Origin: Patescibacteria group bacterium
GTDB lineage: Bacteria; Patescibacteriota; Patescibacteriia; UBA9934; GWF2-40-263
Assembly: GCA_004297215.1 (NCBI GenBank)
Contig: SCUM01000001.1
Span: 612,275 to 676,274 of the forward strand
Length of the DNA stretch: 64,000 nucleotides
Reading direction: 5' to 3'
Shown here piece after piece: positions 8,157 through 13,241 of this stretch (its first letter is position 1; every line of letters begins with the position of its first letter). Made by a program: the position numbers and the translations under genes. Below the pieces are notes generated by a model that saw only the letters and a program-made list of their open reading frames with translations, had not been told where the DNA came from and made no database searches.

Positions 8157-8268
8157 GTCCCGGCGTCCACCTACTCTCGCCCAATCGGACTACCATCGGC
8201 CCCTGGCGGCTTAACTGCCGTGTTCGGGATGGGAACGGGTGTGACCCGCCGGGAACTGACACCGAGAC
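8157..8268 (-). rRNA. rrf: 5S rRNA
   Basis: CACACCCGTTCCCATCCCGAACACGG, GTTAAGC, GCCGATGGTAGT, GAGAGTAGG; terminal helix. Confidence 0.95.
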
Positions 8269-8320
8269 GCTGCCATGATTCGTACAGAGAAAACACGATT
8301 TCAGGATCCGATCTGAAAGT

Positions 8321-11404
<3,084 letters not shown>

Positions 11405-12876: not shown

Positions 12877-13008
12877 GGCTTCCTCCTTGTCGGTGCCGAA
12901 CCTTCTCTATCATCCTAAATGGACACGGTCAATCGAAAACCCACCGAACGCGCGGTGGGTTTTCTTGTCCCGGGCTCGAGCCGAAACGGCTCGCCAACCG
13001 AAGTCGGC

Positions 13009-13086
13009 TGGTGGAATCGACGGGATTCGAACCCGTATCTCTTGGTGGCAACCCTAGCGAGGTTAACCAGTTACCTCCACGATCCC
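13009..13086 (-). tRNA. Non-canonical tRNA-Ala-like RNA (anticodon probably TGC)
   Basis: Acceptor GGGATCG/CGATTCC+A+CCA with G3-U70, T arm ACGGG-TTCGAAT-CCCGT, 5-bp D stem, mismatched anticodon stem CTAGG/CCAAG, loop GTTGCCA. Confidence 0.75.
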
Positions 13087-13241
13087 GAATCCGAGCCCGG
13101 GATACACAAACAAAACGACCCCCATTTTAAGGAGGGTCGTTTCATTGCCACCAAGAGGATACCGTAGAGGTACTCACCAGGGTTAATGGTATTCAATCAC
13201 GAAATATCATTTCCGTCAACCCATCTCCTGTGGAAAACCGC

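Follow-up and report, generated by a model that had tools for sequence, protein, structure and literature searches.

A tRNA-like RNA and its cognate antisense RNA in CPR bacteria: a candidate RNA toxin-antitoxin module

Why should a tRNA-like gene in a small bacterial genome lie behind a leader that is antisense to its own anticodon arm? The question is raised by a module of about 280 bases, protein-free judging by its sequence, in a genome of 0.98 Mb, where it occupies the minus strand between an alpha/beta hydrolase gene and an 83-aa ORF. It was found in a stretch of 64,000 nucleotides, here called the window, which was analyzed as a whole. The predicted order, read along the minus strand, is a sigma-70 promoter, an RNA of approximately 78 nt, a terminator, the tRNA-like gene and a second terminator. 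The promoter (13191..13219) has the -35 element TTGACG (13219-13214), a 17-nt spacer ending in TGA and the -10 element TTGAAT (13196-13191); because of this arrangement, the start of the small RNA is placed just before its first antisense segment, near 13184. The predicted small RNA, which we refer to as the anti-tRNA, would extend over 13106..13184 (fold z -3.7) and end in a hairpin with a U-run at about 13106..13143, so the intrinsic terminator that an earlier reading of the sequence alone had placed between leader and tRNA is found by both sequence and folding. A clamp stem on the tRNA precursor would follow, with a 5' strand TCCCGGGCTCG at 13092..13102 that pairs with 12978-12968. The tRNA-like RNA itself lies at 13009..13086, and its 3' trailer (12968..13008) is predicted to supply the clamp stem's 3' strand and to form two hairpins (the stretch 13102-12966 has a fold z of -4.3). 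The module ends with a putative second terminator of the bidirectional type at 12935..12964, a perfect 12-bp inverted repeat.

The complementarity between the leader and the tRNA is real and far beyond chance. What the sequence-only reading had noticed was that 13145-13162 is an inverted copy of 13035-13051, and this match holds with one bulged base. This part of the small RNA, segment C (13145..13162, minus strand), is antisense to the anticodon, the 3' anticodon-stem strand and the variable loop (13051-13035), with an exact core of 13 nt and a duplex energy of -25.6 kcal/mol. The pairing with the anticodon loop, 3' anticodon stem and variable region that had been claimed is present, and it is larger than claimed because segments A and B take part besides C. 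Segment A (13173..13184, minus strand) is antisense to the 3' D-stem strand and the 5' anticodon-stem strand (13061-13050) at 12 of 12 pairs, two of them G-U, with an energy of -18.7 kcal/mol. Segment B (13163..13172, minus strand) pairs with tRNA positions 13081-13072 at 10 of 10, and in many relatives is a mere linker hairpin. One of the two D-arm echoes that had been reported, GAGGTA, is genuine and belongs to segment B; the match of the other, GGTTAA, is better assigned to segment A. Together A and C reach -43.5 kcal/mol, compared with -15.5 +/- 3.5 for dinucleotide shuffles, and none of 2000 shuffles was as good. Compared with a colinear antisense copy, the segments in their order A-B-C are circularly permuted, the break being at the anticodon loop. 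From this geometry the leader could cover the D and anticodon domain while sparing the acceptor/T half. We rejected the possibility that the copy is the scar of an integration site: it is inverted and permuted, it shows G-U compensation, and no integrase was present among the scanned neighbors.

Relatives of the module were collected in several ways. A DNA search gave matches in 26 of 61 genomes, and a covariance model matched 101 of 151 genomes of the same order at an E value of 1e-12, with at most 10 matches per genome and none in the other 50; the best E value was 1e-17 or lower in 79 of the matched genomes, and the 22 weaker ones are candidates only. From at least 150 order matches 60 loci were taken, together with 20 further stretches, and pattern scans added 74 genomic and 64 metagenomic loci. 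In all, 156 distinct tRNA-like sequences were parsed, mostly from Uhrbacteria; most of them came from patterns that fix R34, Y36 and the TCCA end, and kin among them are not independent. Covariation analysis of 44 members recovered all four cloverleaf helices, with none of 500 shuffles scoring as high, although pair 31-39 is broken in 19 of the 44. The predicted parts upstream of the tRNA recur. TTGAC lies 86-199 nt upstream in 142 of the 156 modules, with a TG-n-TnnAAT consensus, and in 132 of those 142 segment A begins 34-37 nt past TTGAC; a U-rich run (at least 6 T in 8) marks the terminator of the small RNA in 140 of 142, and 82 of 155 modules carry the clamp-stem motif, CCCGG or CCCGA, in their 5' flank.

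The complementarity is private to each pair. Loss of complementarity in related loci had been named beforehand as evidence against the pairing, and co-variation of leader and tRNA in relatives as its check; the complementarity proved to be kept across the module family, with compensatory changes. When distinct pairs with a promoter were compared, the own tRNA of a small RNA ranked first for 92 of 110 and among the top three for 104. Mean energies for cognate and non-cognate partners were -18.9 versus -9.1 for segment A and -19.6 versus -9.9 for segment C; the family-wide specificity of segment B is slight (-10.0 versus -8.7). Positions 34, 35 and 36 are Watson-Crick paired to segment C in 138, 137 and 140 of 142 modules, respectively. 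Within the pairing cores there are 139 G-U mismatches versus 57 A-C, the excess that is expected if the minus-strand RNA does the pairing. By a loose test that allows G-U over 190 nt, the pairing of segment C reaches 9 or 10 of 10 positions in 154 of 156 modules, and one of the two exceptions is a sequence cut by the end of its contig. Only segment C is retained in two members (L009 and L015). In the genome that carries the window, all four intact small RNAs are predicted to prefer their own tRNA over its paralogs and over the 46 canonical tRNAs, with some cross-talk between the small RNAs of the two GCC copies. Antisense control of ordinary tRNAs was therefore rejected, each intact small RNA scoring better on its own partner than on those 46. 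No antisense match of at least 14 nt was found within about 260 nt of 31 ordinary tRNAs from other CPR genomes.

What kind of tRNA would be held by such an RNA? The window copy is detected by ARAGORN and scores 29.7 bits on the Rfam tRNA model; generic tRNA was the only Rfam family found at its cut-off. It has the pairs G1-C72, G2-C71 and G3-U70 (13084/13015), with A73 and an encoded CCA, a D stem of 5 bp, an anticodon stem of 4 bp of which three are paired, a 9-nt loop and a 3-nt variable loop. G3-U70 is present in 155 of the 156 parsed sequences, a count in which U70 was fixed by the parse and G3 was free, and G3-U70 together with A73 is present in all 59 model-found loci parsed without those constraints. 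G3-U70, G2-C71 and A73 constitute the bacterial alanine identity set (PMC9976931). Pair 4:69 is usually C-G, not G-C, and the same holds for this genome's own tRNA-Ala genes; the genome also encodes AlaRS. The tRNA-like RNA is predicted to be charged with alanine. It is not a canonical tRNA-Ala: it carries the identity set but not a 7-nt loop with an alanine anticodon and a purine at position 37.

The anticodon is more difficult to assign. ARAGORN gives UGC for the window copy and UGA, UGU or UGG elsewhere, and across the family it types the members as tRNA-Ser, -Ala, -Thr, -Pro or -Leu. That register puts C or U at position 37 in 116 of 118, and its pair 31-39 is the one broken in 19 of 44. 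Since a pyrimidine at 37 is not tRNA-like, we doubt the ARAGORN register; its UGC is probably one base 5' of the true triplet. Members from other orders settle the matter, we infer, in favor of the 3'-stacked triplet as the anticodon. In three of them (L162, L165 and L168) a 5-bp stem closes a 9-nt loop of the form NN-UU-RNY-A-C, and the same 3' side is found in distant relatives with an 8-nt loop (L292) or a canonical 7-nt loop (L295). The enlargement of the family's loops lies on their 5' side. The Uhrbacteria form has one D-stem pair more and one anticodon-stem pair fewer, and the two may offset each other, so that the triplet would sit at its normal height. By comparison with these family loops the window loop, GG-UU-GCC-AC (13053-13045), likely has the anticodon GCC (13047..13049, minus strand), which would read the glycine codons GGC and GGU. 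Minimum free energy folding of the window copy favors an arm outside the cloverleaf (-26.3 versus -22.0 kcal/mol), and a 9-nt loop on a 4-bp stem may decode poorly.

In this register the 156 triplets are GAC (81), GCC (23), GTC (20), GGT (11), AAC (8), AGC (4), GAT (3), ATC (2) and one each of GGA, ACC, CAC and GGC, so that alanine anticodons account for only five. The loop follows the pattern U32-Y33-R34-N35-Y36-R37 that is typical of decoding loops, with synonymous G/A variation at position 34. The alanine triplet GGC is avoided: C36 follows G34-G35 in one of 13 copies and follows G34 with any other middle base in 124 of 127, and in the sole GGC copy the antisense RNA still matches GAC. The four AGC copies have an alanine anticodon in the proposed register, yet their antisense RNAs are fully matched, with three origins forced by supported branches; a missense error therefore cannot be the sole thing that is restrained. 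The tree, which is poorly resolved, has frequent anticodon changes; GGT, for instance, requires 6-9 changes on bootstrap trees, of which only two are forced. The GAC copies have A35, C36 and A73, which we take to be ValRS identity features, and they might also be valylated. The genome contains ordinary tRNAs for valine, glycine, aspartate and alanine, with all the canonical tRNAs for these codons, and the module tRNAs are supernumerary.

An alanine-charged RNA need not decode. It could be a mini-tmRNA that has no tag, or an alanine-carrying helper with a non-decoding loop; bound to SmpB or EF-Tu, it would act at stalled ribosomes or poison their rescue, under the control of the small RNA. A tRNA-like-domain-only mini-tmRNA is an alanine acceptor with a tmRNA-like T arm and no coding part, and the module RNA, with its predicted alanine identity, resembles it in all three respects. 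On the tmRNA model members reach 24-40 bits, more than the ordinary tRNAs of this genome, and the T arm and 3-nt variable loop are tmRNA-like. Relatives from other CPR classes combine a degenerate D arm with the same loop, and a helper of this kind would accommodate the AGC copies. The D stem and the anticodon-like loop are where the two differ. To our knowledge the tRNA-like domain of tmRNA has no D stem, whereas the Uhrbacteria members possess one of 5 bp that co-varies and is paired in 98% of cells, degenerate D arms being confined to distant relatives. The decoding pattern of the loop, its synonymous variation at position 34 and its avoidance of GGC are also against a helper of this kind, and the genome already contains a full tmRNA and SmpB. 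We regard this explanation as improbable. A two-piece or permuted tmRNA was rejected outright, for lack of a tag frame and because the genome has SmpB and a normal tmRNA; the 78-nt window RNA has no pseudoknots either, and scores 23 bits against a tmRNA cut-off of 47.

One further RNA that the window copy resembles is the skipping-rope RNA (RF02924; PMC5737381), likewise described as a cloverleaf-like RNA of about 80 nt with a terminator behind it. On that model the window copy reaches 34.8 bits, below the cut-off of 36.7, with similar letters in the D arm and in the variable region and T stem. The skipping-rope alignment, however, leaves the anticodon arm unpaired, and the model lacks the GGG...UCCA acceptor and the canonical T loop. 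Twenty other member loci gave no match at an E value of 0.001, and no DUF3800 (PF12686) gene was matched in the genome, the neighbors here being the hydrolase gene and the 83-aa ORF. Membership was rejected because the score is below the cut-off and is not shared by paralogs, and because DUF3800 is missing.

The sequence-only reading had left two options for how the leader acts, a terminated small RNA of about 80 nt that binds the tRNA in trans or a tRNA-sensing attenuator. According to the second option, the mature tRNA would bind the nascent leader and alter termination as a form of feedback, and the order seen here, leader then terminator then tRNA, is the one that it requires. The Uhrbacteria form also has no clear second promoter (25 of 150 pass a loose rule, with 11% expected), so read-through is needed for the tRNA. 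No switch is predicted, however. No antiterminator is predicted, and pairing of the terminator is put at 0.93 when the 5' domain is free, against 0.95 when that domain is blocked; the difference exceeds 0.3 in only six of 142 modules, and the window copy gives 0.91 in either state. The sole downstream gene is the tRNA itself. The likeness to a T-box is a leader that precedes a terminator and touches the anticodon of a tRNA. A T-box makes contact through a 3-base specifier and the CCA end, in contrast to a predicted pairing of about 40 bp that melts the arm. The view that the leader is unlike a classical T-box and has no visible Stem I is borne out, there being neither an Rfam T-box match nor a predicted antiterminator, and membership of the T-box or attenuator class was rejected on these grounds together with the missing switch.

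Other gene orders bear on the same choice. Eight loci represent a second subfamily, which belongs to other orders of the class; five of them come from among eight outside-order matches and three from another scan. A second promoter is located inside the terminator in seven of the eight, compared with 12.5% in shuffles, and would provide the tRNA with a start of its own. In the loci concerned (L162, L163, L165, L167, L168 and L175-L177) the -35 element lies in the loop of the terminator hairpin and the -10 element right after the U-run. A search of 121 genomes of the phylum with the tmRNA model, in which 38 short matches among the matches listed were examined, yielded 31 ordinary tRNAs, two shortened tmRNA-like RNAs and five odd alanine-type RNAs. 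For two of these five there is an antisense RNA that covers the loop; it is encoded downstream with its own promoter in one (L275) and convergently, with a shared terminator, in the other (L292); no antisense partner was found near the remaining three (L264, L270 and L295). In the family of L275 six of 10 genomes matched, and the parse drew on 15 loci, with three unparsed and three duplicates among them. In all 10 parsed RNAs a cognate antisense stretch of 13-18 nt lies 105-109 nt downstream of the start of the RNA, in a gene with its own TTGAC promoter, and the triplets are ACC (8), ATC (1) and GTC (1). Gene order is thus free across CPR lineages, and the loop and its antisense partner are constant. 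An antisense RNA that is downstream or convergent with its own promoter, or a tRNA with a second promoter, implies pairing in trans. The conserved promoter and terminator, the cognate co-variation and these downstream and convergent genes all point to the trans-acting small RNA, and feedback attenuation is, in our estimation, very unlikely.

Among the odd alanine-type RNAs, the one with the canonical 7-nt loop (L295, G373:C2:64481-64556) has G3-U70 and the aspartate anticodon AUC, with no antisense partner within 1.5 kb, and is a candidate natural missense tRNA that would insert alanine for aspartate. Two others have no D stem (L270, G376:C8:21709-21780, and L264, G324:C1:329638-329725), and L270 combines a UU-GUC-A loop with a duplicated 3' end downstream. 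A model termed R2, applied to 150 genomes of the phylum, matched a single ordinary tRNA-Ala and nothing else, which means that R2 misses the subfamily with a degenerate D arm. A further scan was positive in 2 of 401, these being L295 and one fragment that lacks the 5' half of the tRNA.

The genomic distribution of the module constrains what it may be for. The window genome has four intact copies and two in which the tRNA core is lost and the antisense RNA is kept. In these damaged copies (G000:C1:83776, minus strand, and C1:800552, plus strand) hairpins resembling REP elements replace the tRNA from the 5' D-stem strand to the T loop; the replacement begins at the same point, after the 5' D-stem strand, and the promoter, antisense RNA, clamp and terminators are intact. 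One of the two also carries a small ORF, presumably encoding a GIY-YIG nuclease-like protein. The tRNA core of another locus (L247) is damaged likewise by a different palindrome. The two knocked-out copies show that the tRNA is dispensable, not that it is toxic. Flanking ORFs, examined with 139 queries (137 of 162 called ORFs and the window's own), are assorted housekeeping genes in either orientation, and no link to a mobile element, an integrase or a defense island was found among the 137 that were scanned. Some flanking genes recur, namely valS, uvrB and recJ, so copies can persist vertically. Carriage by phages or plasmids was rejected, since three patterns gave no matches in viral contigs and phage and plasmid collections gave no blastn match.

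A rival reading is a regulated, beneficial form of mistranslation, in which an alanine-inserting missense tRNA diversifies the proteome and the small RNA is an off-switch that stress lifts, with no role in addiction or defense. The anatomy of the module fits such a device equally well, and the recurring flanks are in keeping with vertical persistence. The codons that would be read are among the commonest of the genome (GGC 44.6, GAC 42.7 and GTC 32.5 per thousand). A precedent exists in the Streptomyces tRNA-ProX, which mistranslates deliberately and is reported to be able to raise antibiotic tolerance (PMC10404621). It is less easy to explain why relatives have anywhere from none to 10 copies, why copies are lost and why every copy has a private, diverging antisense partner; the private partners fit independent addiction units better than one regulated pathway. 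We consider beneficial mistranslation unlikely, if still worth keeping in mind. It is also conceivable that the RNA donates alanine outside the ribosome, for cell-wall or lipid alanylation, with its availability set by the small RNA. The invariance of the alanine identity beside a free middle anticodon base, and glycosyltransferases among some neighbors, would agree with a donor. No transferase recurs as a neighbor, however, the T arm has the canonical form, the constraint on the loop is that of an anticodon, and the acceptor arm is not covered by the antisense RNA, all of which makes this proposal highly improbable.

The explanation that we favor, by a modest margin of belief, is that the two RNAs constitute an RNA toxin-antitoxin pair, with an alanine-charged miscoding or frameshifting tRNA neutralized by its cognate anti-tRNA. 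At the level of sequence, the architecture, the cognate co-variation, the invariant alanine identity, the patchy multi-copy spread among unrelated housekeeping genes and the free gene order are established. In this subfamily the promoter would yield mostly the short terminated RNA and, by read-through, the tRNA; such a supply would leave the antidote in excess, and the leader could mask the arm in cis during transcription. AlaRS would charge the mature tRNA through G3-U70 and A73, leaving the anticodon unread, and the loop would then present the 3'-stacked triplet to glycine codons here and to valine, aspartate or threonine codons in other copies. The two extra bases on the 5' side of the loop may cause frameshifting and may also be the toehold for the antisense RNA. 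The free tail of segment C would nucleate on the loop, and A and C would exchange onto both strands of the anticodon stem, the acceptor/T half remaining intact. Loss or decay of the short RNA, whether by transcription shut-off, phage infection or loss of the locus, would free the tRNA. There is precedent for the harm that such a tRNA could do: Ala-tRNA anticodon variants mistranslate and slow the growth of yeast (10.1101/2022.11.23.517754), missense allo-tRNAs can be lethal to E. coli (PMC5389517), and SufJ, with an insertion on the 5' side of its loop, is reported still to decode with canonical 34-37 geometry and to shift the frame (PMC4238358).

Two type VIII systems, in which toxin and antitoxin are both RNA, have been described as validated, SdsR-RyeA and CreTA (PMC10767807). 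The module resembles them in that both parts are RNA, encoded side by side as adjacent noncoding genes, and the antidote is specific for its partner, here by predicted pairing. It differs from CreTA, in which the toxin gene is repressed by Cas proteins under guidance from the antitoxin (PMC9458426), and from SdsR and RyeA, which overlap on opposite strands, whereas the antidote of the module would be a separate mimic predicted to pair with both strands of the anticodon arm. It also differs from the type in that the putative toxin is itself a tRNA; if its toxicity were confirmed, it would be classed under type VIII as a new toxin class. Allo-tRNAs are a parallel for the putative toxin. They are natural tRNAs of serine or alanine (G3:U70) identity with noncognate anticodons, some of which are lethal in E. 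coli, and they have been found near toxin-antitoxin genes (PMC5389517, PMC7609411). Given the inferred register, the module tRNA shares their discordance between identity and anticodon, but allo-tRNAs are described with 8/4 or 9/3 acceptor branches from Acidobacteria, Clostridia and Proteobacteria (PMC5389517, PMC7609411), in contrast to the 7/5 branch of the aligned module members and their enlarged loop. The word antisense does not occur in the main text of PMC5389517. The tRNA-ProX/ProRSx system of Streptomyces is similar as a dedicated family of mistranslating tRNAs with varied anticodons and toxicity in E. coli; it has proline identity and a special synthetase gene, and its abstract mentions no antisense RNA (PMC10404621).

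We found no description of a tRNA/anti-tRNA module in the open-access full-text literature, nor is one contained in the main text of the preprint 10.64898/2026.10.21.760802. The module is real and conserved, and it is apparently undescribed. If the toxin-antitoxin reading is true, a bacterial tRNA is controlled by an antisense RNA dedicated to it, and about 280 bases, with no protein, encode a toxin that corrupts the genetic code. More tentatively, and with belief and doubt leaning to doubt, the modules could form a phylum-wide, protein-free toxin-antitoxin class of the CPR, in which a code-breaking tRNA toxin (alanine at valine, glycine, aspartate and threonine codons, with frame slips) is countered by a strand-invading anti-tRNA in dozens of orthogonal pairs, and phage infection or stress, by letting the anti-tRNA decay, sets off proteome-wide miscoding as abortive defense or dormancy. 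This would be an overlooked addiction, defense or dormancy device of reduced-genome CPR bacteria, invisible to protein-based scans. Many ARAGORN annotations would be corrected, and more than 100 naturally orthogonal tRNA/anti-tRNA pairs would be available as switches for genetic-code engineering. Even a harmless tRNA would leave an anti-tRNA that co-evolves with it, for which the literature searched offers no parallel.

Several minor features accompany the modules and their genomes. A motif containing CCACA (TTTTCCACA / TTATCCACA), at 13229-13237 (minus strand) in the window, lies at most 25 nt upstream of the -35 element in 59 of 140 modules; it resembles a DnaA box, and it is probably a general CPR promoter-upstream element. 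In one lineage (L078, L148, L204, L223, L227, L234 and L239) the terminator loop of the small RNA is expanded by long AT-rich palindromic repeats, which put the promoter more than 200 nt from the tRNA. The 23S and 5S rRNA genes at 8158-11403 of the window have several insertions relative to the Rfam model, and the window contains no 16S gene. An unusual tRNA-Ile for bacteria, with the ARAGORN anticodon UAU, is encoded at G000:C1:568893-568969; it is ordinary-looking and not a member of the family. The two shortened tmRNA-like RNAs, of 159 nt (L298, G312:C1:613380-613538) and 137 nt (L299, G335:C17:245-381), score above the RF00023 cut-off, and their genomes also carry a full tmRNA.
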